DNA of 64,000 nucleotides from a bacterium (GTDB lineage Bacteria; UBA9089; JASEGY01): NCBI GenBank assembly GCA_040753085.1, contig JBFMHI010000003.1, forward strand, positions 2,367 to 66,366. The letters are read 5' to 3'. Of the stretch, positions 9,811 through 61,146 are shown piece by piece. Made by a program: the position numbers and the translations under genes. Each line of letters opens with the position of its first letter. Position 1 is the stretch's first letter. The notes under the pieces are model-generated. The model had not been told where the DNA came from. It made no database searches and saw only the letters and a program-made list of their open reading frames with translations.

Positions 9811-10035
9811 GTAACCGTTCAGGTATAGCTGCACGGATTAGCACGGATAAATAACACAGGACAGAAGGCGGAAGTGTAGGGACAGGGCTTGTCCCTGTCC
9901 GTGCTTGTCCATGTCCGTTCCGTAGACGGACAACCACAAGGGTTGTCCCTACAGCCTAAGGACAGACCCTAATCACGGACACGGCTCACGGATTCTCCGT
10001 GTTTCATCTGTGTGCATCTGTGGCTGAACGGTTAC
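9811..10035. promoter_or_regulatory. module flanked by perfect 12-bp IR gtaaccgttcag/ctgaacggttac containing ACGGAT repeats at ~10-bp spacing and the palindrome GGACAACCACAAGGGTTGTCC (compensatory variant of GGGCAACCACAAGGGTTGCCC at 3841-3925)
   Basis: read directly; located between stop of gene 10298..20065 and start of gene 4518..9674. Confidence 0.6.
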
Positions 10036-10115
10036 TCTCTGAGAAATAACTGCCATAGGGTATCAGGTAATGGGTGATCACCGATTACCGATTACCTGAG
10101 TAGTTACTTCAAAAC

Positions 10116-10296
10116 GTAACCGTTCAGCCACAAAGCCACTAAGGCACGAAGAGAATAATGAAATAGCCCACGGATGACACAGATTTTGGCGAATTCTCAC
10201 GGATTTTTTCTAATAAATTTTTATCCGTGTCAATCCGTTTCATCCGTGCAATCCGTATGCTATTATTTGTAATCTTTGTGCCTTAGTAGCTGAACG
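10116..10296. repeat. MITE-like element of the GTAACCGTTCAGCCAC family whose arms (gttcagccacaaagccactaaggcacgaag / ctttgtgccttagtagctgaac) bracket an array of four ATCCGT direct repeats spaced 10-11 bp (ttATCCGTgtcaATCCGTttcATCCGTgcaATCCGTatgc); right arm ends 2 nt before the stop codon of the 3255-aa gene
   Basis: read directly. Confidence 0.65.
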
Positions 10297-10297
10297 C

Positions 10298-13200
10298 TTA
10301 CTTCAAAACTATCATCTTCCTGGCGCCGGTGAAAGACCCGGCTTGGAGCTGGTAAAAATAGATGCCACTGGACACCTCTTCTCCGCTCTCATCTCGGCCA
10401 TCCCAGTAAGCCGCCCGATCCCGGCTTAGATAGCTGCCGGGCGGCAACTTGCCGGCATTGATGGCCTTGACCAATTGACCGGCTAAATTGTAAATGAATA
10501 TAGTTGTTTCAGCCTCCTCAGCCAGCCGAAATGGTATCCAGACCTCCGGATTAAAAGGATTAGGATAATTTTGGAGGAGCTGGCTCCTGGCCGGAACCTG
10601 ATTGGCCAGGGCCAGTTGGATATATTCGGCCAGGACCTCTGTCAGCTCGGTATAAGGCGTATCTTTAAGGACTTCATACATCGCCCGCAGAGGTTCAAGG
10701 TCCAATGGCTGAATGCTCACTTCTGACTGCTGACCCCTGATTTCTGACATCTGACTGCCGGCTTTTGTCTGCTGAGTCTTGTGCCAATTCATCCCAATAG
10801 GCAATATGTCTCTGGCATCAACTATCCCATCGCCATTAGCATCAGCATAAGCGGCCAGGGTAACTTTCCAGGAGGCGGCCGGTTGGGGAGTCCAATTGGA
10901 GGAAGCCGTCTCTCTGGGCGGCCCCTGAGTTTTCCAATACAGGCCAATAGGCAGCACATCCCTGGCATCGACCAGACGGTCATTATTGGTATCTCCCGGC
11001 CAGACCAGAACCTGGGAGACACTGCCTTCCTTGATGATAATCTCACTGCTGGTCGGGAGCAAGGAAATAGACCTATCCAAAGAATCCCTGGCTATTATAT
11101 TTGAGAACACCAGGGTTATTCTTGTCCCGGACGCCAGCCCTTCGGCTATTCTGAAGATCACTTTGGCTATTGATTGGCCTGGTTCGAAGCCGGATACCCC
11201 TTTTGAATGGAGGCCCTTTTTTCTGGAAAGACCTATTTCTATCCGGCCTTGACCCTTTTCAGACTCAAAGAAGACCAGTTTCCCAGGATCAATATCGAGA
11301 AATGGACCGGGACTAACTTCCAATACTTCAACGGCCTCAGAAGGAAAGGCAGAGATTTCAAACACCAGGCCAAAAAGGTCGGATACGGGATGTTGTCTAT
11401 CCCCAACTTCGACTTCCACCTCAAACTCTTCCCGGCTCACCTTGGTGTAAGTTGGTTGATCCCACCTCAATTCCACTTGTGACGAGACTAACGCCTTTAC
11501 TTTAACCGTGGAGGGGGCGGAGAAATATCCAGCGGCATTGGCCACTACTAACTGGAAGATATATTCCCCTGGCTCTTGAGGGGTAAATTTAGGTTGAACC
11601 ACGTTCTCCAGAATGATCCTCTCTGGTCCGGCTGCCTGGGTCCAGAAGTAACTAAGCTGTTCCCCCTCAGGGTCGTAACTGGCTCCGGCATCAAGGATGA
11701 CTAAGGTCTTGACCCCGGTAGTAATGTCTGGTCCGGCTTCGGCAATAGGACTATGCAGGTCTTTGGCCCAGGGGGCATAATCCACGAAATCGCTTACCCT
11801 GTCTCCTGTTCCGGCCGGATTATAAAGCGGTCTGACCGTCGAATCATCTTTAGGTCCTGTTCCAGCGCCCCAATAGTTGCTTTCAGCCTCGATAGTGTAG
11901 GACTCATCCTGATTGAGAAGGCCGAACTCAAGGTTGTCGGTAATTTCACACCCCTTAAGGCGAAGTATCTTTTCCCTGGCTCCAGGATAAGACCGGGGGA
12001 AATCTCTAAAAAGGAGACCAATCCGGTTATTGGTTATCCTGGCCCGGTCAATTTGGATAGAAGCCCCCTTTATTCCTTCTATCCCGATAGTATTTTCCAA
12101 GATATGACAATCCCGGATAATCGGATCCCTCAAGGTGGCCGTAACACCTGCCGCCGCGTATCGAATCCGGCAGTAGCTCAACTCGAGGTCCTCTGGCGGG
12201 GACGTAACTTGGACCGCCACTACATTCTTGCCCTCTCTCAGGTAAGAACCAAGCTGATAGGTTTCTCCTGGATTAAAGGTTATTAGGGAGTCCTCATTTT
12301 TAGCTATTAATTGTCCATTGACGTAGACTTCATAATCGGTCACCGCCGAGATATGCAAGGGGGCCGTGATTTGCCGCGAGATAAGTTTATCTTCACTATT
12401 TCTGAGGGGGGGCGGATCAATAAAGATCTCCTGGCGATAATACCTCTCTCCCCCCGCCTCTATGGCAGGTTTCAGCCAATGGGCTTCTGTTTCAGGGAGC
12501 CAGTCCTTTGGGTCTCTGGGTTGGTCACCGCGGTCAACGGCGGCAGTTTTCCACCCGGAATCATCAAAGTCAACCTGCATCCAATCTGACGGGGCTGCCT
12601 CGCCTTCTAATCTTTTCCAGGAGGCATCGGTGATTACACTCATTTCTCGGTAAAGATGGTAGGTCTCCTCCTTACCCTCACAGCATTCTCCTTCAGACTT
12701 CAATCCCCTGACTGTGAAAGATTCCTGAATAGGCAAGTCTACCAGAAGGGACTGCTTAATTTCCAACTCCACAAAGTGAAGGCCGCTCCAATCACCGGCC
12801 CGGGGGGTAGTGGCCTCACTATCCCCGTTGCTATCTCCACCAAATTCATCATCCTTGAAAGAGGTGAAGGTAATGAGCCTATCGGCTGTTCCGTTGGCCT
12901 TGAGCCTTCCATTGATAGTCAAGGCCCCGGCGCTTTTAAGGATCACCCCAGGGCTGATCCTCCAGGTAGAATCCTCGCCCACCTTCAAGCCGTCCGCCAG
13001 ATAAAAAGGCGCCCCATCCTCTTCCCAGATTACCTCTTCCTTCCCGGTAATATCGCCGCAGATCTTGATGGCATTGTATTGGTTGCCGAATATCTCGTTG
13101 TCCGTAATCAGATAGGCCTTGTTGGCGGTAATGCCGATGGCATAGTTGCGGTTATGGTTAATCAGGTTGTTTCTGATAATAGGCTCGGCTTCCTCCCCAC

Positions 13201-25196: not shown

Positions 25197-25748
25197 ATAT
25201 CTACCCTCTCTCGTATAATATAAATTATGAACGCTCTCGGATAAAACCTGTTTTTGACAGGTTCAGAAGTTAACCTCTATTTATCCGATACTCCTCGATT
25301 ACTCGCGCTGGATCGGGTAGGTCAGGGGCCTTTCAGCCCCATTCCCCCCTAAGAACTGTACATGGAAGTTTCCCCACATACAGCTCAAGCATCTCAAAGG
25401 CGGCCCTTGTGGGACAGCCCGACTGTGATTATTCCTATCACAGCCTTTGCGATACGCATTTGCAGCCTTCTGACTTCCCGTTGAGCTTCCTTCCAGTTAC
25501 AGAAACATGCCGAGCACTCCTATAACTACTTGAATACACTCAGCTATGCGACATCGTGTCGCACCTAACGACAAAGCTCAGCGACGGGGGGAATGCGGCG
25601 GTGACTGAGCGGTGCGAGTGGAGGCGAGCTTGCTCGCCGAAGCGAGCATCCGTTCCAGCCGCTTGTTCGACGGTGCGAAGCGTCCGCTCGAACTATTTTT
25701 ATACAGTTCCGGATAAAAACCTGTAGACAGGCTCCGGTGATTGAGTCT

Positions 25749-27176
25749 TCATCCTTTGATCACGCCCATGGGTTTGAGCCTGGACACCAGACGGCCAATG
25801 CCGGCCCCATCAGTTACTTCAGCTACATCTTCGATATCCTTATACACCCCCGGTGCTTCCTCGGCAATTCCCTTCAGAGAGCCGCCTTTAACATAAATCT
25901 TCTCTTTTTCTAAATCTTCTTTGACCTGACTTCCCCTGAATTTTTTCAGGGCCGCGTGTCTGGAAAGGAGCCGGCCGGCCCCATGCGGGGTGCTGGCGAA
26001 GGTCTCAGCCGCGGCCTTATCGGTTCCAACTAAGAGATAAGAGGCAGTGCCCATACTACCCGGCAGGAGGATAGGCTGGCCGACTTTCTTATAAGCTTCG
26101 GGCACCTCCGGATGTCCCGGGCCAAAGGCCCTGGTAGCCCCCTTGCGATGGACATAGACAGACTTGCGCACACCATCAACTTCGTGTTCTTCCAGTTTGG
26201 CGATGTTGTGGGCCACATCGTAAACCATCCTTAGTTTAAGCCCCCCTCCAAAGACCTCCTGAAAGGCCTTACGAACATTGAAGGCAATAAGCTGGCGGTT
26301 CACCCAACCAAAGTTGGCCGCGGCACTCATAGCGGCGAAATAGTCTTCCGCCAGTTTTGTCCCCAGCGGGGCATAGATCAGTTCCCGATCAGGCAGAGTC
26401 GAAAGGAGATGCGAAAACTCGTCTTCCATTCGTCTCAAATAATCAGTGCAGACCTGATGACCTAATCCCCTGGAACCAGAATGAATCATCACCATTATCT
26501 GGTTTTGGTGCTCAATACCAAAGACCCGGGCAATGCCGGGATCATATATCTTATCCACATATTGCACCTCAATGAAATGATTCCCTGCCCCCAGGGTGCC
26601 TATCTGGTTCTTCCCCCGCTGTTTGGCTTTATTGGAAACCCTGTCCGCCCTGGCGCTCTGCATTGAACCGCCCTCTTCACAATGAGCCAGGTCTTCCTCA
26701 GTAGCATAACCGCGTTTTAAGGCCCATTTTGTTCCGGTATTTAAAAGCTCGTCCAGTTCGGCCTCCCTTATCCTTAGACCTGATTTCGAACCTACCCCCA
26801 CGGGAACATTTCTAAAAATGGCCTCAAGCAACTCCCTGATTTTAGACTCAACCTTGTCTTTACTTAGAGGAGTGGACAAAAGCCTTACCCCGCAATTAAT
26901 ATCGTATCCGATTCCCCCTGGTGAAATACAGCCTTCCTTCGCATCAAAGGCAGCCACACCACCAATAGGGAAGCCGTATCCCTGATGGGCATCAGGCATC
27001 ATAATGGACTGTTTCTGGATGCCTGGCAGCACAGCCACACTGGCCCCCTGCTGCAAGGCGTTGTCTTCCATTAGCTGGGGAAGCATCTTCTCTGAGGCAA
27101 ATAGCTTTAGCGGCACCTTCATCTGGCCGGTTGGTTCTACCATAAAGGTATATTGATCGATCTTCTTTGGCTTCAT
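25749..27176 (-). CDS. rtcB: RNA-splicing ligase RtcB (3'-phosphate/5'-hydroxyl RNA ligase)
   Basis: start taken at MKPKKIDQYTF (GAGGAGGAG RBS 4 nt upstream; ORF-track TTG extension to 27197 unlikely); motifs GYDINCGVR, HSGSRGLGHQVCTDY, NHF. Confidence 0.92.
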   Translation of the reverse strand: MKPKKIDQYTFMVEPTGQMKVPLKLFASEKMLPQLMEDNALQQGASVAVLPGIQKQSIMMPDAHQGYGFPIGGVAAFDAKEGCISPGGIGYDINCGVRLLSTPLSKDKVESKIRELLEAIFRNVPVGVGSKSGLRIREAELDELLNTGTKWALKRGYATEEDLAHCEEGGSMQSARADRVSNKAKQRGKNQIGTLGAGNHFIEVQYVDKIYDPGIARVFGIEHQNQIMVMIHSGSRGLGHQVCTDYLRRMEDEFSHLLSTLPDRELIYAPLGTKLAEDYFAAMSAAANFGWVNRQLIAFNVRKAFQEVFGGGLKLRMVYDVAHNIAKLEEHEVDGVRKSVYVHRKGATRAFGPGHPEVPEAYKKVGQPILLPGSMGTASYLLVGTDKAAAETFASTPHGAGRLLSRHAALKKFRGSQVKEDLEKEKIYVKGGSLKGIAEEAPGVYKDIEDVAEVTDGAGIGRLVSRLKPMGVIKG

Positions 27177-27198
27177 TTTTCTCCTCCTCTCTGGCAAT

Positions 27199-27296
27199 TA
27201 CTCAGGTGGATAGACTGAAGGCTGAAGGCTTTTAGGAATAAATACGGAGAGCAAATGATTGGACTTCAGTCTTCAGCCTTCAACCTATCTACCTGT
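27199..27296. repeat. REP-like palindrome ctcaggtggatagactgaaggctgaagg...cttcagtcttcagccttcaacctatctacctg immediately upstream of rtcB
   Basis: inverted repeat read directly; GCTGAAGG family. Confidence 0.65.
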
Positions 27297-27482
27297 AGAG
27301 TAGAGCACTGGCGCAGTAATAGATCTGTTCTTGGGCTTTCGTTGCACGCAACTACTAACGCTACAACAGTTATCCTGTTTCCAGCACCCCCTATCAAACC
27401 GTGCGTGAGGTTCTCCCTCACACGGCTTGCCGATAACTGAAACAGGGAGCAATTAATTGTCCCCACAAAAGCCGGTACGGAC

Positions 27483-27613
27483 GCTACGAATAAAAGTTAC
27501 AGACGGAAAGTATCAGGCTCGGACCTCAACGATGGCTGCTGGCCTTACCGATCACGTCTGGCCCCTTTCGGAATGGCTCACTCTACCTGCCGTTCAACGT
27601 AAGTAGAGCACCA
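27483..27613 (+). mobile_element. ~130-bp dispersed repeat, copy 1 of 2 (~85% identical to 46346..46476); conceptual translation ...MAAGLTDHVWPLSEWLTLPAVQRK* resembles a transposase C-terminus, so likely an IS-end/MITE remnant
   Basis: pairwise similarity seen directly between the two loci; no intact transposase ORF present. Confidence 0.5.
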
Positions 27614-27801: not shown

Positions 27802-28107
27802 TTATGCCAGAACTTTTAAATATCTATCTATATCCATTGCACCATGAAACACTCCTAAATTATCAATCATTTTCTTATTTCTGATAAGATATGTAATACG
27901 GTAATGACCGTATAGCAATATTCTTATATCACCTTCAGGTTCTGATCTGTACTTGTATCCAATTTCTGGAAAATCTTTAAGAACCTGTGCCTTTCCATAA
28001 ATTCCTTTTACCACTCTCTGTGCAGCATTCACATTGTCTTGAGCAATATAGTTATAAATTTCTCTTAGCCAGTTTTCAGCCTCTGGAGTCCACTTTATTT
28101 TTGCCAT
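27802..28107 (-). CDS. RelE/ParE-family type II toxin
   Basis: MAKIKWTPEAENWLREIYNYIAQDNVNAAQRVV...DIRILLYGHYRITYLIRNKKMIDNLGVFHGAMD typical ParE/RelE fold signature. Confidence 0.85.
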   Translation of the reverse strand: MAKIKWTPEAENWLREIYNYIAQDNVNAAQRVVKGIYGKAQVLKDFPEIGYKYRSEPEGDIRILLYGHYRITYLIRNKKMIDNLGVFHGAMDIDRYLKVLA

Positions 28108-28280
28108 GACCGAAGGCGTTGCTCCATTTCCTCATTACTGATTATCCTGCCTTTGCGTGAATCTTCTAATCCTCGCTCAACCATTCGCTCAAATGCGAGT
28201 TCACGCATTATTTCTTCATAGGAAACATCTTCAGGCTGTTCTTGAATGATTTTTGTCATTACCTCTTTCACAGTAGTCAT
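28095..28280 (-). CDS. addiction-module antitoxin (CHP02574-like component partnered with RelE/ParE)
   Basis: 61 aa, EEIMRELAFERMVERGLEDSRKGRIISNEEMEQRL; overlaps toxin gene by 13 nt. Confidence 0.7.
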   Translation of the reverse strand: MTTVKEVMTKIIQEQPEDVSYEEIMRELAFERMVERGLEDSRKGRIISNEEMEQRLRSWQK

Positions 28281-39291: not shown

Positions 39292-39717
39292 ATGAAAAAC
39301 CTTCTCTTAAAAAATCTGGGATTAAAACTTATGGCGGTTATTCTGGCCACCCTTCTTTGGTTTTACATCTCTTCTCAGCAAACCATAAAGAAGGTTATAT
39401 CCATCCCGGTCAAGTGGTACAATCCCCCCACTGGTTTGGTGCTTCAGTCTATGGACTCGAAGGTAGTATTTGTTACTATCAGGGGGCAAAAGGAAGAGGT
39501 CTTGAAGGCTCAGGCCGCCGACTTTTCCATATCTCTTGACCTCTCCAAGGCCAAACCAGGCCGTCAGGTATATGAATTAACCCCGGAGATTGTTATGACC
39601 CCCTCAAGGATAAAGGTAATAAAGCTTTCACCTGAACAGGTGACTATTACTATGCAGGCAAGTCGGAGGGGAAGATTGAATATAGGGGAAGAAACGAATG
39701 AAAATACCTCTGGCTAA
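39292..39717 (+). CDS. cdaR: YbbR-domain protein, CdaA regulator (short, single YbbR repeat)
   Basis: N-terminal TM helix then YbbR-like beta repeats; canonical position between cdaA and glmM. Confidence 0.7.
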   Translation: MKNLLLKNLGLKLMAVILATLLWFYISSQQTIKKVISIPVKWYNPPTGLVLQSMDSKVVFVTIRGQKEEVLKAQAADFSISLDLSKAKPGRQVYELTPEIVMTPSRIKVIKLSPEQVTITMQASRRGRLNIGEETNENTSG

Positions 39718-40327
39718 AGATGGGTGGAAGTTCCTTATATTCCTGGGGATTATCACGGCGGTGAGTTATCTGTATTTCTCGTGGTTGAGCCTGATGCCGG
39801 CGGGGGTATTGCTCTTTACCGCCTATTTCTTCAGAGATCCAGAGAGAGAATTGCCAAAGATAGAAGGGGGGTTCTTATCTCCGGCTGATGGGAAGGTAGT
39901 AGAGATAGCCGAGGTTTATGAGGGAGATTTTATCCGGGATCAGGCCCTTAGAATTTCCATCTTCCTCTCTCTTTTTGATGTTCACATCAACCGTGCCCCG
40001 GTGAGTGGTGAAGTAACCTTCCTCCATTATAAAAAAGGCAGATTTGTGGCGGCCATGAAAGCAGCCGCCTCTGAGGTTAATGAAGCCAACTCTATTGGGA
40101 TTGTCCAAGGGGATTTAAAGGTTTTGGTCAAACAAATAGCCGGTGTGATTGCCCGGCGAATCGTCTGTCCACTCCAGCTTAAAGATAAGATCACGGCCGG
40201 TCAGAGGATAGGGCTAATAAGGTTTGGTTCGCGGACTGAAATCTACCTCCCGCCTGAAACCGAGATATGGGTCAAAGAAGGCAGCAAGGTCAAAGGCGGC
40301 GAAACAATATTGGGGGTGTTAAAATGA
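39698..40327 (+). CDS. psd: phosphatidylserine decarboxylase proenzyme (short archaeal-type form)
   Basis: 209 aa, N-terminal TM, autocleavage-site-like FGSRTE (G-S) near C-terminus; overlaps cdaR by 20 nt. Confidence 0.8.
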   Translation: MKIPLAKDGWKFLIFLGIITAVSYLYFSWLSLMPAGVLLFTAYFFRDPERELPKIEGGFLSPADGKVVEIAEVYEGDFIRDQALRISIFLSLFDVHINRAPVSGEVTFLHYKKGRFVAAMKAAASEVNEANSIGIVQGDLKVLVKQIAGVIARRIVCPLQLKDKITAGQRIGLIRFGSRTEIYLPPETEIWVKEGSKVKGGETILGVLK

Positions 40328-41082
40328 AACGAGTCCATATTCTACCCAGCTTACTTACCGCGGGGAATCTATTCTGTGGGATAAATTCCATTCTTTTATC
40401 AGTGGAAGGCAAATACCCTGAAGCGGCCTGGATGATCTTATTGGCTATTTGTTTTGACATCCTTGATGGTCAGATGGCCAGACGATTAAAGGCGGCCAGT
40501 AATTTCGGGCTTCAATTTGATTCTCTCTCGGATCTTGTCTCCTTTGGACTGGCTCCGGCCATCTTGCTCTACTGTTTGGCCTTTCCCCCCTTGAGCAGGT
40601 TGGGTATAATGGTCACCTTCCTCTACAGTGTTTGCGGAGCCTTACGATTAGCCAGGTTTAATTTGATCGTCCCTACGGAGGAAAAAACAGCCAAAGACTT
40701 TGTCGGGTTTCCTATCCCGGCCGCCGCAGGATTTATCGGGGCCGGAGTTCTATTCTGCAATGAGTATAATCTTACGATCCCCTTTAAGTTCTCCTCTCTG
40801 GGGATGATCTTGTTAGCCTATCTTATGGTTAGCCGCCTAAGGTATCCCAGCCTCAAAGAAACCCATTTGTGGGGAAGAAAACCCTTTGTCTATCTGGTAA
40901 CGATAATACTGGGCATAAGCCTGGTTGTTTTACATCCTCCTTTGATGCTTATCCTTATTTTCTCGGCTTATCTATCTTGGGGGCCTTTCAGGTCGGCCAG
41001 GAAAAATTTACATAGGTTCGGGTGGCTGCCCAGGGTCAAAAGCGAGATCGAAGAAAAGAGCCCAATGAAAGGAGCCAGGTAA
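40324..41082 (+). CDS. pssA: CDP-diacylglycerol--serine O-phosphatidyltransferase (CDP-alcohol phosphatidyltransferase family)
   Basis: start ATG 40324 overlapping psd stop (ATGA); motif DILDGQMARRL...GLQFDSLSDLVSFGLAPA = D-G-x2-A-R...G-x3-D-x3-D. Confidence 0.85.
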   Translation: MKRVHILPSLLTAGNLFCGINSILLSVEGKYPEAAWMILLAICFDILDGQMARRLKAASNFGLQFDSLSDLVSFGLAPAILLYCLAFPPLSRLGIMVTFLYSVCGALRLARFNLIVPTEEKTAKDFVGFPIPAAAGFIGAGVLFCNEYNLTIPFKFSSLGMILLAYLMVSRLRYPSLKETHLWGRKPFVYLVTIILGISLVVLHPPLMLILIFSAYLSWGPFRSARKNLHRFGWLPRVKSEIEEKSPMKGAR

Positions 41083-41128
41083 CTACTCGGGTTACTGGAT
41101 ACCTGGGTAGTTACGGAAAAAGATTTCG

Positions 41129-42478
41129 ATGGAAAGATTATTTGGAACGGATGGAATTAGAGGGATCGCTAATCGTTATCCCATGAATCCGCATATGGCG
41201 TTAAAGCTGGGGGCGGCTTGTGGACATCTCTTTAAGACTAAGGGTGAAGAGCAAGTGGTGGTTGGCCGTGATACGAGAATATCCGGTCAGATGTTAGAAG
41301 GGGCTCTTCAGGCCGGGATTACCTCGGCCGGAGTGGACTGCCTTAAAGTAGGTGTCTTGCCTACGCCAGGGATCAGCTATCTGACCAGGGCCCTTTCGGC
41401 CAAGGCCGGCATTGTTATATCTGCCTCGCATAATCCAGTAGAGGATAATGGGATCAAATTCTTTGGTCAGGATGGGTATAAACTCCCGGATGAAATGGAG
41501 CTTATGATGGAAGAGGAGGTCCTGAGCGAGGAATCCCGCTTTATCTCCCCGGTAGGAACCGATCTTGGGCAGGTGAGGGAAATAAACGATGCCGGGGAAA
41601 GGTATATTGAATTTTTGAACCGCAGCATATCCTCATCTCTTCATCTGAAAGGGCTGAGGATAGTTATTGACTGTGCCAATGGGGCCACCTCCGGGATTGT
41701 TCCTCGTCTCCTCGAAGATTTGGGGGCAAAGCTGATCGTTATGAATGCTAATCCCGATGGCAAGAATATTAATCTTAATTGTGGCTCCCTCCATCCGGAG
41801 ATTATGTCTCAGGCGGTGCGCGACCACCAGGCTAATTTGGGACTCTCTTTTGATGGGGATGGAGACCGCCTCATTGCCGTGGATGAGAAAGGTCAGGTGG
41901 TTGATGGGGATAAGATTATGGTCATCTGTGCCTTAAATCTGAAAGAAAAGGGGATACTATCCAACCACGTGGTGGTAGTTACGGTAATGAGCAATATTGG
42001 TCTTGAGCGGGCACTTAGCCCGGCCGGGATAAAAATAGTCAGGACAAAGGTCGGTGACCGATATGTGGTTGAGGGGATGCAAAAGGAAGGCGCTAATTTA
42101 GGCGGGGAACAATCCGGTCATCTTATCTTTTTAGATCATAATACCACCGGGGATGGGATTATCACGGCCTTGCAGCTTTTAAATGTCCTCAGGGAAGAAG
42201 ATGCCCCACTCTCTGAATTGGCCAAAAAAATGAAGCGATTCCCTCAGACCTTGCTTAATATTGGGGTAAAGAGTAAACCTAATCTTACTGATCTGCCGGA
42301 AGTTATGGATGCTATTACTACCGCTGAGAATAAATTAGGTGAAGATGGCCGGGTGCTGGTTCGTTACTCTGGAACTGAACCCAAGGTCAGGGTGATGGTG
42401 GAAGGACCAACTGTGGAAGAAACTGAAACTATGGCTAAATCAATCGCCGCAGCGATTGAGAAGGAGATCGGCCAATGA
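41129..42478 (+). CDS. glmM: phosphoglucosamine mutase
   Basis: MERLFGTDGIRG...ISASHNPVEDNGIKFF active-site serine loop. Confidence 0.93.
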   Translation: MERLFGTDGIRGIANRYPMNPHMALKLGAACGHLFKTKGEEQVVVGRDTRISGQMLEGALQAGITSAGVDCLKVGVLPTPGISYLTRALSAKAGIVISASHNPVEDNGIKFFGQDGYKLPDEMELMMEEEVLSEESRFISPVGTDLGQVREINDAGERYIEFLNRSISSSLHLKGLRIVIDCANGATSGIVPRLLEDLGAKLIVMNANPDGKNINLNCGSLHPEIMSQAVRDHQANLGLSFDGDGDRLIAVDEKGQVVDGDKIMVICALNLKEKGILSNHVVVVTVMSNIGLERALSPAGIKIVRTKVGDRYVVEGMQKEGANLGGEQSGHLIFLDHNTTGDGIITALQLLNVLREEDAPLSELAKKMKRFPQTLLNIGVKSKPNLTDLPEVMDAITTAENKLGEDGRVLVRYSGTEPKVRVMVEGPTVEETETMAKSIAAAIEKEIGQ

Positions 42479-43560
42479 AAGACTTCAAACCCGGCGGCTT
42501 AGCGACCGCCATTGGAAGTTTTCCCTATCAGGACCCGGTTAAGGCCTGTCGGCTTATTGGGAAGTATCTACCCGATATGCCAGTCTGGCCCCAGTTGCCT
42601 AAAAGAGACCCGAGGGAGGGCATGTATATCCAGTATAGTGAGGCCATGCCCTGCTGCCGGTATGATGTGGCCAAGAATAAGATATACTTTGATACCACCA
42701 TCAATGTAGCCTCTGAAATGGAGAAATTCTATGAACACTACTTAGCGGATGATTTGGATTACTTTGGCCTAAGCCCTGACTATGCCGCCGGCTTTCACGC
42801 CTTTTTAGAAGCCCTGGAATCCAATAACTTGAAACCCCACGACCCGCAAGCGGGTGCCCTGAACCCGAAACTATCCTTTGTGAAGGGCCATACCACCGGA
42901 CCGATTACCTTCGGTATGACGGTAACGGATGAGGCAGGAAAGGCCATAATCTATAATGATCAAATATTTGAAGCCATATCCTATGGTCTGGCGCTAAAAT
43001 CCCGCTGGCAGTTAGAAAAACTAAGACCCTTCGGGGATCAGGTTATTATCTTTCTTGACGAACCCTATCTGGCTGCCTATGGCTCGGTGGGCATGAATTT
43101 CAGTCAGGCAGGGATTATTAATATGCTAAATAAGGTAATTGAACCTGTCCGGGAAAGTGGGGCAGTGGTGGGCATTCATTGCTGTGCCAATACTGACTGG
43201 TCGATGCTGATGCACACCGCCGCGGATATTATCAGTTTTGATGCTTACAGCTATATGGAAAGCATGACCCTTTATTCTGAGGCTCTTTTGAGCTATCTGT
43301 CCAGAGGAGGCGCGCTGGCCTTGGGTATCATCCCGGCCCAGGATATGGTTCTCAAGGAAGAAATCGAAACTCTTTCCATCCGGCTGAATAAGGCCATAGA
43401 CTCCCTGGTTGAACTGGGCATACCCAAAGCCGATCTGCTGACCCAAACCCTCATTACCCCCTCTTGCGGTCTTGGCGCAGGCACCGAAGAGATCGCCCAA
43501 AAAGCCCTCCAATTGACTCACGGGCTCTCGTCGATTTTAAAGGGTGCCGCCGCCTTATAG
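42475..43560 (+). CDS. cobalamin-independent methionine synthase catalytic-domain (core-MetE-like) family protein
   Basis: ATGA overlap with glmM; ATAIGSFPYQ (cf MetE TTTIGSFPQT), IFLDEPYL (cf IQIDEPAL), IHCCAN and TPSCGLG (cf HMCYS / NPDCGL zinc ligands). Confidence 0.55.
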   Translation: MKDFKPGGLATAIGSFPYQDPVKACRLIGKYLPDMPVWPQLPKRDPREGMYIQYSEAMPCCRYDVAKNKIYFDTTINVASEMEKFYEHYLADDLDYFGLSPDYAAGFHAFLEALESNNLKPHDPQAGALNPKLSFVKGHTTGPITFGMTVTDEAGKAIIYNDQIFEAISYGLALKSRWQLEKLRPFGDQVIIFLDEPYLAAYGSVGMNFSQAGIINMLNKVIEPVRESGAVVGIHCCANTDWSMLMHTAADIISFDAYSYMESMTLYSEALLSYLSRGGALALGIIPAQDMVLKEEIETLSIRLNKAIDSLVELGIPKADLLTQTLITPSCGLGAGTEEIAQKALQLTHGLSSILKGAAAL

Positions 43561-43585
43561 CCGAACGTCTCAGACGGATTCATAA

Positions 43586-43990
43586 ATTTGTAATCGTTCA
43601 CCACAGAGACACGGAGACACGGAGAATGATTTCGACCTGTATGATTAGAAATTACAAACAATGGGTTGAAATCTTTCCTACGCCCTGTCAGGGCTTGACC
43701 TTATGGGATACCATTATTCCGTAGATTGAAATCTACGGCTAAATTCCTTTACGCCTTCGGCGTATAAATAGGATATATTAATAAAACCTGTTCCCTGATT
43801 TTCATCAGGGCAAGTTCTGACAGAACCTGCTCCTGACAGGCTCTGAAGTTCAGGAATCATTATTAAAGCCCGAAGGGCTGTAGTATATGTTAGCCGTAGG
43901 TTTGAACCTACGGAACATTAAATGGGAAATTAATTAAGCCCCGCAGGGGCGAAGGAGAAAATACAGAGGTGAACGGTTACGATTATATCA
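43586..43990. repeat. non-coding block: single-arm copy of the GTAA(C/T)CGTTCACC element (gtaatcgttcaccacagagacacggagacacggagaatgatt, 43586..43631) followed by ~9 unrelated short stem-loops (gccctgtcagggc, ccgtagattgaaatctacgg, tacgccttcggcgta, ccctgattttcatcaggg, gcccgaagggc, ccgtaggtttgaacctacgg, gccccgcaggggc)
   Basis: read directly; left boundary of the high-GC islet. Confidence 0.6.
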
Positions 43991-44077
43991 CTTTCGCCAG
44001 CACACGTCAACTCCTCTAACGCGCTCACCTGGCGCTTCAGGCTTCCCCAGTCGGGCGAGTTCCAGGGGAACTGCGTC

Positions 44078-45781
44078 TCATTGTAGACCGGCGGGCACGC
44101 CCTCGAGGACGGCGCCTGCTGCCAGTTGGGTCCGCGCCTCCAGTACCTGGCGAACCGAAAGCTCGACGGCATCCGGATCTGTCCAGGGGCTCATGATGAA
44201 CGACTTGAGGGCGGCGATGGGAGGCCCCCCCGCGTAGCTGGAATGCCGGTATGCATCCGTCCGGGAAAGAAGCACGCCTTCGCCACGCATCGCCCGATCA
44301 TGGATAAGGTCGAAAATGCTGCGGTTGTAAGCGTTGTGTTCCTCCACCTGCGTGCGGTAACCGGGGTCGGACAGCTCGCGTCGCAGCGCTTCGTCTGCAT
44401 CTACCCCATTCGGATAGACGCGGAAGAGGGTGACCGGCCCATAGTTATAGTCATTCAGCACATTGATAGAGGGATTTCGCTCGAGCCGCTCGCGCAGCAT
44501 CTCCGCCATCTCCACCACGTGGCCGATAAGCACCCGGTAGCCCTGCTTGCCCAACAGCGCGATGTTGGCCAGGGCTGCCAGCGCGCTCGCGCCCGGGCGC
44601 GACGATTCCAGGGTGTAGATGCCGGGATGATAGCGACCGAACTGATAGAGGTAGGGCATCTGCGCCGGGTCGCGGCTGAGCAGGGTCAAATCCTCCCGAT
44701 CTTTGACCAGAAAGACGCTGGAGATATAGGGCGCATAGCCGGTCTTGTGGAAATCGATCCCCAGGCTGTCCGCAAGCGAGAGATCTCCGATGCGCTGCAG
44801 GGAATCCCGCAGGGAGCGCAGCGTCCGGGCATGGAAACCCAGGGGGTTGCTGTTGAAATCGTAATCGCGGAACACGGCCCACGCCCAGCCGATGACCGCG
44901 TCGGCATGGATGTGCGGCCTGTATTCCAGCCGGTATTCCCCGGCGAGCCGGTCACGAAGGCGCACGATCGCCCCCAGGTCATCAATGCCGAACGCATCCG
45001 TAGTGCCCAGGGTCGCGATGATGGCCGCCACCTTTTCCCCCCGCTCGAATAACTGCCGCAAGTGTTCTTCCAGATCAGCGAGCGATATCTCGTTGTCGTG
45101 TGTAGTGGGAACAGTCACCAGGTTCTTCGTTCCCAGCCCCAGCCAGCCCGCTACGTTCAACCGCGAGTAGTGCGCCGCCTCGGAAGCCACGATCTTCAGA
45201 TCCTCACGGATCCCATCCGTCATCGCTCGGCCACCGAGCGCCTTTTCCACCCCGAGCTTGCAGCCGTAAAGAAGCGTGCCGGTGCCGCCAAAGGTGAAGA
45301 CGCCTCCGGCTCGCTGCGGGGCATAGCCGACCAGATCAGAAAACATGCCCACGACCTGCAGCTCGGCCTCCGCAAAGCGGGCAGAATACTCATCCCAGAT
45401 AATGTTCGGATTATAGATGGCGCCAGCCATTACCGCAGTGATACTGGGGATCGTGGTGGGCGGGACGACATTGACCGAGGCGTTCGGGTGCGCCCAGATG
45501 GTCATGCCCCGGCAGTAGTCCACCAGCATATTCGTCGCCTCTTCCACAGAGCACATCTCCCCCGGGAAAGCCTCGCCGAGGCTTATCTCATAGCGCCTTC
45601 CCTGCCCTGCTCCCAGCAGGGGTGCGGCAGATTTCAGGCTATCTACCTCGTCGAGAAAGTGCGAGATGGTGTGGACGAAGTAACCGTCCATAATCGGGTT
45701 AGATACCGGCGTGGGAAAACAGGTCTTGAGTTGCTCCAGAATCGCTGTATAGCTCTGCCCCATGGTGATATCCTTTCTCAT
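44078..45781 (-). CDS. PLP-dependent group II decarboxylase family protein (Asp/Glu/DOPA-decarboxylase fold)
   Basis: ~567 aa from ATG 45781 (AGGAG 6 nt upstream; alternatives 45763 or 45838); SLGIDFHKTGYAP PLP-lysine context; coding GC ~62% versus ~47% flanking. Confidence 0.7.
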   Translation of the reverse strand: MRKDITMGQSYTAILEQLKTCFPTPVSNPIMDGYFVHTISHFLDEVDSLKSAAPLLGAGQGRRYEISLGEAFPGEMCSVEEATNMLVDYCRGMTIWAHPNASVNVVPPTTIPSITAVMAGAIYNPNIIWDEYSARFAEAELQVVGMFSDLVGYAPQRAGGVFTFGGTGTLLYGCKLGVEKALGGRAMTDGIREDLKIVASEAAHYSRLNVAGWLGLGTKNLVTVPTTHDNEISLADLEEHLRQLFERGEKVAAIIATLGTTDAFGIDDLGAIVRLRDRLAGEYRLEYRPHIHADAVIGWAWAVFRDYDFNSNPLGFHARTLRSLRDSLQRIGDLSLADSLGIDFHKTGYAPYISSVFLVKDREDLTLLSRDPAQMPYLYQFGRYHPGIYTLESSRPGASALAALANIALLGKQGYRVLIGHVVEMAEMLRERLERNPSINVLNDYNYGPVTLFRVYPNGVDADEALRRELSDPGYRTQVEEHNAYNRSIFDLIHDRAMRGEGVLLSRTDAYRHSSYAGGPPIAALKSFIMSPWTDPDAVELSVRQVLEARTQLAAGAVLEGVPAGLQ

Positions 45782-46345
45782 GTGCATCTCCTTCTGCATG
45801 GAGAGGAGCCCCTGGAAGCGCTCTAAGCGCACACCCATATTCTACACCATAGCGCCATCCCGTAAACTTGTCTGCGCTTTCGCCAGTGCTGAAGACGAAG
45901 ACGCCGCGCTTGAGCTCGCCCGAATCGGTGGTGAAGCCCCCGCCGTAGTGGCGAGCGGCAGGAAAGCAACAAAGCGGCAGGAATCCGACACCGACCAGGC
46001 GTATTGTCTGAAGGCACGCTATTGACACGGGCCGGACCCCGATCCGGGCCTTGGCGGCTCTAGACGCAGAAGCCTTTAAATGATAAATGATAGAAATTTT
46101 GATTTCAGGGTAATTCGGAAGAAGTGTCATAGAAGTGCCCTCCAGATGTTTTTTTAGTGCTTTGAGCCCTATGGTTTTGGATTATAGTATATAAAAATGA
46201 GTAAGTCAAGTGAAAAGTTGGTTGGTGGTCTTCTTAAATTAAAAAAATATATCAAGAATATATCCATTGAAGAAAGGGTTGAGCCAATCGTTTATAACTA
46301 GGGGGGAACGGCCGTTCGCCCCTAGTTCTGCTGGCTGGTAAGGAG

Positions 46346-46476
46346 GCTACGAATAAAGGTTACAGAGGGAAGGTATCAGGCTGGGACACCAGCGATGGCG
46401 GCTGGCTTTACCAATCACATCTGGAGACTTTCGGAATGGCTTACTCTACCTGCCGTTCAACGTAAGTAGGCCACCA
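46346..46476 (+). mobile_element. copy 2 of the ~130-bp transposase-C-terminus-like repeat (...AMAAGFTNHIWRLSEWLTLPAVQRK*)
   Basis: ~85% identical to 27483..27613; preceded by AT-rich DNA and the nested palindrome ctagggggGAACGGCCGTTCgcccctag (46298..46325). Confidence 0.5.
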
Positions 46477-46610
46477 ACAAATATTGAGAAGATACCTCCA
46501 TAGTGTAGCGTAGGGTATCAGTAGGACAAACGGACAACTGACCAGGAACAACTAAACTTTTGGTTGCAAAAGAAGGATTTATATGATAACATATTTTCAG
46601 GAAGTAAGTA

Positions 46611-46980
46611 ATGACTTGGATCAAGATATGTGGGATTACTCGAATAGAAGATGCCTTAGCCGTGGTTGAAGCCGGGGCAGATGCCCTGGGTTTTATTTTT
46701 GCTAAGAGCCCAAGACGGATTGAACTATCTCAGGCAGTTAGAATTGCCGAGAAACTTCCCCCTTTAGTCAGCTTAGTGGGTGTCTTTCTTGATCAAGGGG
46801 CTCAAGAGATTCAGAAGGTCATTGCCTCCTGTCCCCTCACGGCCCTTCAATTTCACGGGCAGGAGTCCCCTGAATTTTGCCGTGCAGGGAGAAAGAGAGA
46901 GGATTGTTTTCCCAAAAGAGATACTCAAAGATGCCCACATTTGGAGCAGTTGCAACTTTAGAAAAGGTATTATCAGATGA
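46611..46980 (+). pseudogene. trpF: phosphoribosylanthranilate isomerase fragment: N-terminal ~95 codons intact, then frameshift and truncation
   Basis: MTWIKICGITRIEDALAVVEAGADALGFIFAKSPRRIELSQAVRIAEKLPPLVSLVGVFLDQ...LQFHGQESPEFCRA matches TrpF through beta-4; next ~30 codons continue only in +1 frame (ERIVFPKEILKDAHIW) and end at 46980; no C-terminal half downstream. Confidence 0.7.
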
Positions 46981-47243
46981 AAAGAAATGATATAAAACAA
47001 CAAAGGATAGCATTATTAAGCCTTATTAAAGGATATAAAAAAACAAATAAGCTGATTTTTGCTGAGAAAAAAGAAAGACTGTCTCGAATGAGCAAAGAAG
47101 AGTCTCTTGATGAGTATAAAGCCCTTTGTGCTATGTGGGAAGGTATAAGTAATAAAACAGGTATTGAGCGAGTATCAGATTTAAATCTGCAAATTCTTAT
47201 CAGACGGAGACAACAATTCGATAGGGCAGGAAAGGTTAAGTGA
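46977..47243 (+). CDS. small protein, putative antitoxin/partner of downstream nucleotidyltransferase
   Basis: 88 aa, start ATG overlaps trpF-fragment stop; stop overlaps downstream GTG (GTGA). Confidence 0.45.
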   Translation: MKRNDIKQQRIALLSLIKGYKKTNKLIFAEKKERLSRMSKEESLDEYKALCAMWEGISNKTGIERVSDLNLQILIRRRQQFDRAGKVK

Positions 47244-47824
47244 GATATTTGAGTTCTCAGATCAGAGCTATATGCAAAGTTCATAACTTTTTTGACAGTG
47301 CAGGTATCCAGTATGTTTTTATTGGTGGCATTGCACTTCAATGGTGGGGTGAACCAAGATTTACCCGTGATGTGGATGTTACCATCCTTGTTGATTTAGG
47401 CAAGGAAGAAGTGGTCATAAAAAAGATATTGTCAGCCTTTCCACCACGCATCCCTGATGCACTCGGTTTTGCTCTTAAAAATAGGGTTTGTCTGGTTTCT
47501 ACTAAAGATGGTTATGAAATAGATATTTCTCTGGGGATCCCGGGATACGAAGAAGAGGTGATGAAAAGGGCAGTTGAATTTAATGTGGATAAAAGACATA
47601 TTGTCAGAATATGTTCTGCTGAAGATCTCATTATACATAAAGTGGTTGCTGGCAGACCACAGGATTTAAATGATATAGAAGGAATAATCCTGCGTCAAGG
47701 GAAAAGACTTGATATTAAATATATACGAAAGTGGCTCAAGGCATTTGCTGATATTCTGGAAATGAAGGAATTAAGAGAAAGATTTGAAAAACCATGGAAG
47801 CAACTGACAAACAAACCCAAATAA
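47240..47824 (+). CDS. minimal nucleotidyltransferase-fold protein (MenT/AbiEii-like toxin candidate)
   Basis: GTG start with AGGAAAGG RBS; NTase motif FIGGIALQWWGEPRFTRDVDVTILVD (hG[GS]...DhD); 194 aa. Confidence 0.55.
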   Translation: MRYLSSQIRAICKVHNFFDSAGIQYVFIGGIALQWWGEPRFTRDVDVTILVDLGKEEVVIKKILSAFPPRIPDALGFALKNRVCLVSTKDGYEIDISLGIPGYEEEVMKRAVEFNVDKRHIVRICSAEDLIIHKVVAGRPQDLNDIEGIILRQGKRLDIKYIRKWLKAFADILEMKELRERFEKPWKQLTNKPK

Positions 47825-47828
47825 TTTG

Positions 47829-47930
47829 TAACCGTTCACCTCACCACGGAGACACAGAGACACTGAGAAAAATCTAAAATCATTCTCCGTGTCTCTGTGT
47901 CTCTGTGGTGAACGATTACCTTTTCTGAAG
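47829..47930. repeat. full hairpin copy of the GTAACCGTTCACC element: gtaaccgttcacctcaccacggagacacagagacac - loop - tctccgtgtctctgtgtctctgtggtgaacgattac
   Basis: ~38-bp arms, internal GAGACAC repeats; right boundary of the islet. Confidence 0.7.
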
Positions 47931-47943
47931 AGGTGCGCCGGCA

Positions 47944-47985
47944 TAAAAAAGGCCCCTGGAATGATCCAGGGGCCTTTAGCTATAC
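47944..47985 (-). terminator. intrinsic terminator at end of the dcw operon (after ftsZ): aggcccctgga-tcat-tccaggggcct + TTTTTTAT on the minus strand
   Basis: 11-bp GC-rich stem and U-tract 40 nt after ftsZ stop. Confidence 0.8.
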
Positions 47986-48022: not shown

Positions 48023-49171
48023 CTAATCGACATGGCGGCGCAGGAAGGCAGGAATAGCATAGGGATCGTCCGCCGGGACTTGGCCTTCAGGGTAATAGCC
48101 CCTATCTCCCACCCCCACTTTTTCTGCCTCGGCCATACTTTTTGCTTTTCTGAAACTTTGCATATCTCTTACTTTCTCATCAGCCTGGACTGGCTCGGCC
48201 GCACTGACCCTGGTTCCGAAACCGGTAGCCACCACGGTAATACTTACTTCTTCTTTCATAGCCTCATCAGTTACTGTCCCAAAGATGACATTGGCCTCAT
48301 TATCCGCCTTTTCCGTAATCAGATTAGCGGCTTCATCTACTTCGGAAATCATCATATCCCTTCCCCCGGTGATATTGATCAAGATTCCTCTGGCGCCCTC
48401 AATAGAGTTTGACTCCAGGAAAGGTGAGGAGATGGCTGCCTGAGCCGCATCAATAGCCCTATTTTCTCCGCTAGCCACCCCGATTCCCATTAAGGCATTC
48501 CCTTGAGCGGTCATTACTGCTTTGACATCCGCAAAATCTAAGTTGATTAATCCGGGAATAGTGATCAGGTCTGCAATGCCCTGGATACCCTGCCTGAGGA
48601 CATCATCCGCTGCCCGGAAGGCATCAATGATAGAGGTTCTTTTTTCCACTACCGAAAGAATTTTCTGATTGGGAATGGTGATTAAGGTATCCACCCGCTC
48701 GATTAATTCTTTCAAACCTACCTCCGCCTGTTTAGCCCGCTTAGGTCCTTCAAAATTAAAGGGTCGGGTGACTACGCCTACTGTCAAAGCCCCTACCTCA
48801 CGGGCTATATCAGCCACGATAGGCGAAGCGCCCGTTCCGGTTCCACCACCCATACCGGCCGTGATAAAGATCATATCTGCTCCATCCAGGAGTCCATAAA
48901 TAGTATCTTTATCCTCCAAGGCCGCCTTTTGCCCGACCTCTGGATTGCCGCCTGCTCCAAGTCCCCGGGTCAATTTACTACCCACGGCTATCTTGTAAGG
49001 GACATCCACCGCCTCCAAAGCCTGACTGTCAGTATTAACCACGATAAAGTCTATCCCGTCGTGCTTCATCTTAGAAGACAACATACGGACGACCGCGTTC
49101 GTCCCTCCACCTCCGATACCAATAACTTTAATCTTGGTCGGATGTTTTACCTCATTTTCGAATTCTAACAT
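48023..49171 (-). CDS. ftsZ: cell division GTPase FtsZ
   Basis: GGGTGTGA tubulin signature, VIGIGGGGTNAV. Confidence 0.97.
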   Translation of the reverse strand: MLEFENEVKHPTKIKVIGIGGGGTNAVVRMLSSKMKHDGIDFIVVNTDSQALEAVDVPYKIAVGSKLTRGLGAGGNPEVGQKAALEDKDTIYGLLDGADMIFITAGMGGGTGTGASPIVADIAREVGALTVGVVTRPFNFEGPKRAKQAEVGLKELIERVDTLITIPNQKILSVVEKRTSIIDAFRAADDVLRQGIQGIADLITIPGLINLDFADVKAVMTAQGNALMGIGVASGENRAIDAAQAAISSPFLESNSIEGARGILINITGGRDMMISEVDEAANLITEKADNEANVIFGTVTDEAMKEEVSITVVATGFGTRVSAAEPVQADEKVRDMQSFRKAKSMAEAEKVGVGDRGYYPEGQVPADDPYAIPAFLRRHVD

Positions 49172-60630: not shown

Positions 60631-61146
60631 TTAGGCAAGCAGACCGTAAGCCGAGTTCTGTATCCTGCTGTCCGAAGTATAGTTGCCTGCGAGGGTCACT
60701 ATATTTCAGGGTCACAGGTTGGTGATCATCCATCTGGGGTAGATGTTGCCATCTACCTCAAGCGACCAACCCGGGAGAATGGCGGGCTACCATCAAGGAA
60801 GGGCTGATGTAGCCATCAGCTCCCTTAGCTCCCCTATTAGGTCTTTCTCCAGGTGGGGTTTACCAAGCCAGGGAGTCACCTCCCTGCTGGTGAGCTCTTA
60901 CCTCGCCTTTTCACCTTTGCCCTTAGAAGTAGACAGTAGTCAGTAAACAGTAGTCAGTAGTAAACAGCCCATTCTCTACCCCCTACTGTCTACTGTCTAC
61001 TGTCTACTTCCAGTAGGCCGTGTGTTTTCTGTGGCACTTTCCGTAGCCTCACGGCTCCTGGGTATTACCCAGCACCCTGCCCTGTGGAGCTCGGACTTTC
61101 CTCTCCTGCTGAAGCCAGCAGAAGCGATCACCTGGTCTACTTGCCC
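60631..61146 (-). ncRNA. rnpB: RNase P RNA, bacterial type A, with an unusually long repeat-containing P12-like helix
   Basis: on minus strand: GGAAAGUCCGAGCUCCACAGGGCAGGGUGCUGGGUAAUACCCAGG, ACAGAAAACACACGGCC, AAAGGUGAAAAGGCGAGGUAAGAGCUCACCAGC, 3' ACAGAACUCGGCUUA pairing with 5' AAGUCCGAGCU (P4, with compensatory G-C to A-U change relative to E. coli), P1 GGCAAGUAGACC/GGUCUGCUUGCC. Confidence 0.85.

Follow-up and report, generated by a model that had tools for sequence, protein, structure and literature searches.

In the 64,000-nt stretch of DNA analysed here (the window), the gap between two convergent operons of an uncultivated bacterium is filled by an islet of ~4.3 kb (43590-47919) that combines at least five unrelated pieces, of three compositional types, into a mosaic. 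We suggest, with a probability of roughly 70%, that the islet is a lineage-specific variable region built by several independent events, that is, by stepwise accretion and by rearrangement at miniature inverted-repeat transposable elements (MITEs). From left to right, it consists of a first hairpin element (E1), a high-GC block with a pyridoxal phosphate (PLP)-dependent decarboxylase gene, a remnant of an insertion sequence (IS) of the IS1 family, a fragment of trpF, a predicted toxin–antitoxin (TA) gene pair and a second hairpin element (E2). Two of these, the decarboxylase and the MenT1-like TA pair, are intact units. The anatomy, composition and homologies of the islet and its broken synteny with relatives are observed; the order of events, expression, toxicity and the part played by the MITEs are deduced. 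The source contig, of 68.5 kb, belongs to a metagenome-assembled genome, and its core genes are coherent for kilobases on either side of the islet. The features of the region are listed below.

Ending at 43560, plus strand: operon of psd, pssA, glmM and a MetE-like gene.
43590..43980, unstranded: E1, a MITE-like element of 391 bp with head GTAATCGTTCACC and tail GAGGTGAACGGTTAC and the terminal inverted repeat I10.
43990..46060, minus strand: high-GC block of 2.07 kb, probably imported; decarboxylase gene with ~90 bp of 3' flank and ~280 bp of 5' flank of like composition.
44078..45781, minus strand: intact group II PLP-dependent decarboxylase, 567 aa as annotated by NCBI (MEW5766172.1).
46070..46290, unstranded: AT-rich junction of 221 bp, 32% GC (31% if shifted to 46075-46295).
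46181..46209, minus strand: sigma-70-like promoter candidate TTGACT-17-TATAAT, proposed from its match to 11/12 consensus positions alone.
46296..46327, unstranded: near-perfect palindrome (I17) directly upstream of the IS remnant, two 16-nt arms, 94% complementary.
46337..46481, plus strand: 3'-end remnant of an IS1-family transposase gene (last ~46 codons, ending in TPAMAAGFTNHIWRLSEWLTLPAVQRK before the stop) and putative right end.
46611..46886, plus strand: 5' fragment of trpF, 92 codons, matching positions 1-88 of the 193 of the Pfam PRAI profile.
46977..47243, plus strand: 88-aa protein, predicted to be all-helical, candidate antitoxin; its homologues elsewhere are small genes that overlap a nucleotidyltransferase gene from upstream.
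47240..47824, plus strand: 194-aa MenT1-type nucleotidyltransferase, candidate toxin according to its structure model and its profile and Pfam matches.
47828..47919, unstranded: E2, a 92-bp hairpin copy of the MITE of E1, inverted relative to E1, with inverted repeats I2, I18 and I1.
47948..47977, minus strand: intrinsic-terminator-like hairpin of ftsZ; 13-nt arms, 100% complementary, a GC stem and then a T-run.
Ending at 48023, minus strand: operon of ftsQ, ftsA and ftsZ (ftsZ 48023-49171, FtsZ domains confirmed).

Three classes of GC content at third codon positions (GC3) stand side by side in the islet: 0.75 in the decarboxylase gene, 0.44 in the trpF fragment and 0.25-0.30 in the two TA genes. 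The core genes of the flanks (psd, pssA, glmM, the metE-like gene, ftsZ, ftsA and ftsQ) have values of 0.42-0.57. A preliminary description of this DNA had proposed a mosaic insertion at the end of the dcw operon. Foreign and decayed DNA does form a mosaic immediately past ftsZ, with which the ftsQAZ (dcw) run ends, but the composition argues for several events and not for arrival as one insertion. The atypical composition and the IS remnant are those of a genomic islet, relatives diverge at the left boundary, and no contig of a relative spans the site; there is no tRNA gene in the 64-kb window. On the right, the terminator-like hairpin at 47948-47977 marks the return of the core genome.

The high-GC block has a GC content of 61.3%, compared with 48.8% for the window, with sharp transitions at ~43990 and ~46055; the two 1-kb bins over it (0.630 and 0.594) are the highest of the 64, the next being 0.556. 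Its gene matches the Pfam family Pyridoxal_deC (E 4e-17) over profile positions 33-371 of 375, and its codon usage (GC3 0.75) lies outside the range of the core genes. The high-GC PLP decarboxylase gene noted before (~62% GC in surroundings of ~47%) is confirmed. Homologues with 70-76% identity over 93-97% of the length are labelled Deltaproteobacteria, cyanobacteria, Methanoperedens and Methylobacter, and they stand as a lone gene in unrelated neighbourhoods (loci L081-L084). The GC content of these homologues tracks that of the host (0.477 in a locus of 0.463, 0.632 in a locus of 0.591); the copy in the window, at 61% in a 49% genome, has therefore not yet shifted to the host composition. 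We conclude from the sequence comparisons that the decarboxylase gene is a horizontal acquisition from a high-GC donor, which would have supplied the whole 2.07-kb block.

As expected of the group II (fold-type I) PLP decarboxylases, which include the diaminobutyrate (DABA), tyrosine, aspartate (PanP) and aromatic amino-acid enzymes, the protein spans nearly the whole Pfam profile, and the solved DABA, tyrosine and aromatic amino-acid decarboxylases are distant matches (E 1e-17 to 1e-18). It differs from them in that no equivalog model of NCBIfam comes near its cut-off, the best being PanP at 94.6 vs 606 bits. The gene is probably transcribed from a promoter in the adjoining AT-rich junction, where the candidate at 46181-46209 lies ~400 nt upstream of the decarboxylase start and on the correct strand. 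No conserved leader was detected upstream of the decarboxylase: DNA similarity to the homologous loci ends at the coding region, and no Rfam family matches. A scan of viral contigs with the decarboxylase gave no confirmed relative. The upstream non-coding stretch is long in other loci too (370 nt in L081 and 715 nt in L084, with ~400 nt here if the promoter at 46181-46209 is real). A second promoter-like site (TTGACG-17-TATAAT, extended TG, 11/12 consensus positions) lies on the minus strand (43982-44010) where the high-GC block has its 3' edge; it is directed into E1 and antisense to the metE-like gene.

The two hairpin elements that flank the islet belong together. The reverse complement of E2 is identical to E1 at 42/43 of the first bases and at 15/15 of the last; E1 and E2 are therefore the same element, present twice in complete form and in opposite orientations, and the outer ends of the pair form 43-nt inverted repeats that are 98% complementary (I1). 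Within 64 kb they are the sole copies of their subfamily. The islet had been described as bounded by a half-copy of a hairpin at 43586 and by a full copy; the same element does lie on both flanks, but the supposed half-copy is a complete 391-bp element with its partner end at 43966-43980. The interior of E1 (~330 nt) is a mirror-symmetric run of small hairpins, and the element as a whole folds into a single long hairpin (-71 kcal/mol, z -7.0). E2 begins 3 nt past the stop codon of the nucleotidyltransferase gene and forms a plain hairpin of great stability (RNA fold -55.9 kcal/mol, z -10.6). Insertion into a hairpin loop was considered and rejected, since E1 and E2 each carry both element ends.

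That the hairpin element recurs, as the preliminary description stated, is true well beyond the islet: if up to two mismatches are allowed, the window contains 10 occurrences of the motif GTAATCGTTCACC, against an expectation of 1.1. At three other copies (4277 AACTTCTT, 20277 GTCATATTT and 10116-10301 TTCAAAAC), there are perfect target-site duplications of 8-9 bp, and the hairpin family therefore behaves as a MITE family. Its members further resemble MITEs in being short, multicopy and nested hairpin elements with conserved terminal inverted repeats and no open reading frame (ORF). They are unlike MITEs in that the bracketing copies E1 and E2 lack target duplications, that no cognate transposase was found, and that the arms are made of lineage-specific heptad repeats. 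The E1/E2 arm pattern had no match in metagenome scans, and a literature search with a 12-nt stretch of the MITE terminus returned unrelated matches only.

Two observations concern the interior of these elements. Inside E1, two convergent units at 43719-43764 (plus strand) and 43866-43913 (minus strand) match the Acido-Lenti-1 RNA of Rfam just below threshold (33.6 vs 37 bits); changes in the stem keep pairing, and the GGCUAA and CCUUCGG segments are conserved. The units are the arms of the mirror-symmetric interior, which suggests that the Acido-Lenti-1 RNA motif can be part of a mobile repeat. At 9950-10301, there are two adjacent or nested members of the GTAACCGTTCAGCC hairpin family; the member at 10116-10301 holds a different, CACGGAT-repeat element, and this inner element is 73.5% similar to positions 9145-9234 of the relative L088 (see below).

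The left edge of the islet coincides with a break in homology. The closest relative, L087 (Logan sample SRR24079447), is 89-90% identical to the window at the nucleotide level over 39685-43589, and this homology stops exactly at 43589/43590, the first base of E1; the L087 contig ends 28 nt beyond. The second relative, L088 (GCA_030019105.1, ~81% identity), keeps psd-pssA-glmM-metE-like, followed by ~1 kb of other nested hairpin elements and then by rpmF, not ftsZ. The hairpin elements right after its metE-like gene are related to those of the window and have similar termini. Synteny with the relatives is thus kept in part: the operon is conserved, but its neighbour in L088 is not ftsZ, and L087 diverges at the edge of E1. 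From the divergence of both, we conclude that the space after the operon is variable in the lineage. A scan of genome contigs with FtsZ found, among the matches listed, distant relatives only (<=64% identity), which gave no synteny information. Exact-sequence look-ups of the decarboxylase, the nucleotidyltransferase, FtsZ, the MetE-like protein and protein P0001 of the window gave no record.

The MetE-like protein that precedes the islet (42475-43560, plus strand, 361 aa) has a 4-nt overlap with the glmM stop, and both relatives retain it behind glmM. Without a match in Pfam, it scores weakly against a methionine-synthase model of NCBIfam (25.9 bits vs a cut-off of 258) and has >2,000 homologues, mostly unannotated. 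L088 also carries, at 2706-3279, a BrnT/BrnA toxin–antitoxin pair between folP and cdaA, where the window (~38426-38444) has 17 nt; this is a further TA module inserted into an intergenic gap in the lineage.

We suggest that the copies of the MITE served as repeated DNA at which insertion, deletion or recombination took place. Such events at the MITE copies would explain why E1 and E2 have no target duplications, unlike their relatives elsewhere in the window. Several observations weigh against a region assembled by independent events. E1 and E2 have no target-site duplication, so that the history at these two elements could not be reconstructed; a relative with an empty site was not found, the contig of the closest relative ending just past the boundary; the contig comes from a metagenome-assembled genome; and the islet is bracketed by the only two copies of the subfamily in 64 kb, which hints at a link beyond coincidence.

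A rival explanation is that the segment from E1 to E2 is a MITE-flanked composite transposon, in which a transposase acting in trans would have moved the 4.3-kb cargo as one unit. As in composite elements, two inverted copies bracket cargo genes; the copies are complete, their outer ends are nearly perfect inverted repeats, they have no other subfamily member in the window, the family does transpose (as the 8-9-bp duplications elsewhere indicate), and the homology to L087 ends exactly at the outer edge of E1. However, there is no duplication at the joint outer flanks (CATAAATTT vs CTTTTCTGA), nor at E1 or E2 taken singly. An inversion between E1 and E2 does not account for the missing duplications, since the swapped flanks also mismatch. 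The window contains no transposase with matching ends, and the three unrelated compositions together with the decayed fragments fit stepwise accretion in place better. Because target-site duplications are missing and the cargo is heterogeneous, transposition as a single unit is unsupported, and we regard it as improbable. There is likewise a slim chance that inverted MITE copies act as ends or recombination substrates that capture foreign genes and keep them in the terminator zone of the convergent operons, which would make the islet a MITE-bounded cargo locus.

The 220 bp of ~30% GC and the 28-bp palindrome at 46298..46325 reported earlier beyond the decarboxylase are both present, the former as the 221-bp AT-rich junction (31-32% GC) and the latter self-complementary at 26/28 positions. 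A transposase-C-terminus-like repeat had been reported as well, and we identify it as the 3' end of an IS1-family transposase gene. The repeat at 46337-46469 (copy B) has a direct copy of 87% identity at 27474-27606 (copy A). Its plus-strand peptide ends in VTEGRYQAGTPAMAAGFTNHIWRLSEWLTLPAVQRK at the stop codon and is 47-50% identical to the extreme C-termini of Deinococcus and Acaryochloris plasmid ORFs, reference sequences that score above the IS1 cut-off of Pfam and below that of NCBIfam. Besides this match to the long single-ORF variants of the IS1 family, the stop codon lies near the element end, as in many IS elements. The peptide match makes a decayed 3' end of an IS1-family element the best reading of the repeat.

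What is left differs from an IS1-family element in amounting to ~46 codons and one end; an intact transposase gene with both terminal inverted repeats is not present. A candidate left end at 46218-46236 matches at 16/19 positions and is not common to the second copy. Between the two copies, 10 codon changes are non-synonymous and 5 are synonymous; this gives no signal of purifying selection (P 0.24) and is no different from neutral decay. A hairpin precedes each copy in the corresponding place, with a sequence that differs between the two. Metagenome scans gave no match to the end of the IS remnant.

Because a group II intron domain V/VI adjoins copy A on the opposite strand, we also considered the possibility that a mini group II intron begins with the 133-nt repeat. 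We regard this as less likely, as the putative 5' ends read GUGCU and GUGGC instead of GUGYG, copy B lacks a domain V/VI, and the plus-strand peptide matches IS1-like C-termini specifically. The intron domains themselves are found at 25312-25388 and 27295-27430, both on the minus strand, with 58.8 and 41.4 bits against a gathering score of 40, and they flank rtcB (25749-27197). Both seem to lie within very short remnants of ~250-320 nt, of which the first starts with GGTGCGAC at ~25565 and the second abuts copy A. Also beside copy A, at 27802-28280 on the minus strand, is a ParE-toxin gene with an overlapping 61-aa upstream partner.

The trpF gene had been described as intact for ~95 codons up to a frameshift, and as split by a nucleotidyltransferase cassette. 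Neither statement could be upheld. The gene is cut off after codon 92: TrpF homology ends at ~codon 92 (46883) in every frame, and the open frame runs on without homology to 46961. A frameshift was rejected, as neither alternative frame tested lengthens the PRAI match and six-frame tblastn adds nothing. Residues 1-92 of a Thermotoga maritima TrpF probe align to 46611-46883 at 50% identity, and residues 93-205 of the same probe have no match by six-frame tblastn anywhere in the 64-kb window. There is no 3' half beyond the nucleotidyltransferase pair, and a split by the cassette is therefore unsupported. The fragment falls well short of a full-length PRAI barrel (~193 profile positions). It is host-like in composition (GC 0.49, GC3 0.44) and may be a remnant of a native gene, the rest of which would have been deleted or replaced, leaving the first 92 codons.

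The last cargo of the islet is the 88-aa/194-aa gene pair. The pair had been described as translationally coupled; its two genes overlap by 4 nt (GTGA), and the likeness of the 194-aa protein to the nucleotidyltransferases MenT and AbiEii is well supported. The protein scores above the Pfam cut-offs (in brackets) for AbiEii with 31.1 (22.5) bits, DUF6036 with 35.7 (23.6) bits and DUF2204 with 30.8 (20.3) bits; the AbiEii models of PADLOC match weakly (E 8e-4 and 5e-3). Its AlphaFold2 model (pLDDT 91.6) has MenT1 as the top Foldseek match (8an5/8an4, E 1.8e-10, TM 0.74-0.78), 5-6 orders of magnitude ahead of the next family, ANT(2'')/LnuA. Searched against the PDB, a profile built from 52 homologues also finds MenT1 (E 1e-10), with the segment EPRFTRDVD identical. 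Nucleotidyltransferase motifs I/II are represented by GG at 29-30 and by D44-V-D46 inside EPRFTRDVD. In MenT1, T39 is the phospho-acceptor, D41xD43 is the metal site, and K137 and D152 are the motif III/IV residues (PMC10435456, PMC11375011). T42 and D44 of the 194-aa protein are the equivalents of T39 and D41, and the profile alignment to MenT1 spans the motif III/IV stretch, from which D145 is read as the equivalent of D152. In the alignment of the 52 homologues, T42, D44, K134, D142 and D145 are invariant, and D46 is nearly so. A viral-contig scan with the nucleotidyltransferase family gave no confirmed relative, and a literature search for DUF6036 yielded nothing relevant.

Homologues of the 194-aa protein number >3,000, at ~190 aa. 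A partner gene lies upstream and overlaps the nucleotidyltransferase gene in 4/4 contexts examined, by 4 nt in the window, L089 and L090 and by 17 nt in L092/L093. The partners in the three further independent contexts are 80-96 aa long; two of them are 49% and 40% identical to the 88-aa protein in a three-sequence alignment (47% and 39% in a 45-sequence alignment), and the family has 54 cluster representatives. The 88-aa protein has no match in Pfam, NCBIfam, PADLOC or the PDB, and a profile of 45 partner sequences did not find the MenA1 chain in the PDB at E values up to 10. Its single-sequence model (pLDDT 58.5) is too poor for a fold search.

Of the known systems, MenAT1 of Mycobacterium tuberculosis (Rv0078B/Rv0078A) is the most similar. 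It shares with the pair a toxin of ~190 aa that is both the best structural and the best sequence match, the identical EPRFTRDVD segment with the phospho-acceptor Thr and the DxD, the conserved Lys and Asp of motif III/IV, and a small helical partner gene immediately upstream. The differences are the low identity to MenT1 (21-22%), the length of the partner (88 aa, compared with 68 aa for MenA1, with no detectable similarity) and the best Pfam family (DUF6036, not AbiEii); the pair described here is, moreover, known from sequence and model. AbiE (AbiEi/AbiEii) shares the above-cut-off AbiEii match and the NCBI name, AbiEii/AbiGii family toxin. Unlike AbiE, however, the pair has no antitoxin of the AbiEi type (COG5340, winged-helix), the upstream gene being the 88-aa gene without a Pfam or PADLOC match, and the 194-aa protein is much shorter than the AbiEii models of PADLOC (231 and 310 positions). 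We conclude that the pair very likely works like MenAT1, with an antitoxin that is not a member of the MenA1 family. If it acts as its M. tuberculosis homologue MenT1 does, the nucleotidyltransferase would block translation through the addition of nucleotides to the 3' ends of tRNAs; the helical protein would bind and so neutralise it, and might also induce it to autophosphorylate the conserved Thr42. The GC3 of 0.25-0.30 indicates that the module is foreign too, from a source other than that of the decarboxylase. Once in place, it would tend to stabilise the islet.

Two further explanations were considered. The high-GC block could be an assembly chimera from another, high-GC organism, as the contig belongs to a metagenome-assembled genome, the GC content changes abruptly, and the left junction abuts the repeat E1, where the contig of the relative breaks as well. 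An internal piece of 2 kb would, however, require two false joins, and the right junction at ~46060 is in unique AT-rich DNA without a repeat. The gene is also intact, with a plausible promoter in the adjoining DNA, and is set between coherent core genes that extend for kilobases on both sides. The position of the right-hand GC junction in unique DNA makes a chimera very unlikely. Alternatively, the whole segment could be ancestral and native, with a composition set by gene-specific constraints, and the relatives would have lost it. The host-like trpF fragment agrees with this, as do the hairpin elements that also follow the metE-like gene closely in the relative of 81% identity. The GC3 of the decarboxylase is nevertheless well outside the host range, its homologues adapt to the GC of their hosts, the TA module is self-contained and found in unrelated contexts, and the IS remnant and the truncated gene point to insertion and deletion. 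We consider an ancestral origin very unlikely.

The idea of an integron-type cassette, in which the E2 hairpin would serve the 88/194-aa pair as attC, was prompted by an imperfect 92-bp palindrome that starts 3 nt past the stop codon and by the fact that TA pairs are common integron cassettes. It can be given almost no weight, since on direct reading E2 lacks the RYYYAAC and GTTRRRY core sites, the related hairpins have the 8-9-bp target duplications typical of transposition, no integrase gene is among the ORFs of the region, and the TA module is not followed by such a hairpin in other genomes.

The RNase P RNA gene (60632-61143, minus strand; class A, 288.7 bits) is 512 nt long for a model of 367 nt. 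It contains a ~78-nt heptad-repeat hairpin (60926-61010), of a kind scattered through the genome, at the tip of a helix (model positions ~126-146), and a second insertion of ~40 nt near the 3' end. At 35807-36113, a block of ~300 bp is made of CTCGAT(A/G) heptads in an inverted arrangement, with many overlapping inverted repeats of 30-33 nt that are 87-97% complementary.

The islet is an ordinary kind of variable region, of modest novelty, and leaves current concepts unchanged. It does provide a small and clean example of how an uncultivated bacterium gains foreign genes and a TA module between convergent core operons. The decarboxylase that it acquired belongs to a family strongly conserved across proteins labelled as several bacterial phyla and one archaeon. 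MenT1-type toxins, so far studied in mycobacteria, are widespread in environmental lineages, to judge by the number of homologues. There is a slim chance that the 88-aa protein represents a new, unannotated class of antitoxins for these toxins, and its family is a ready target for the model of antitoxin-induced autophosphorylation.

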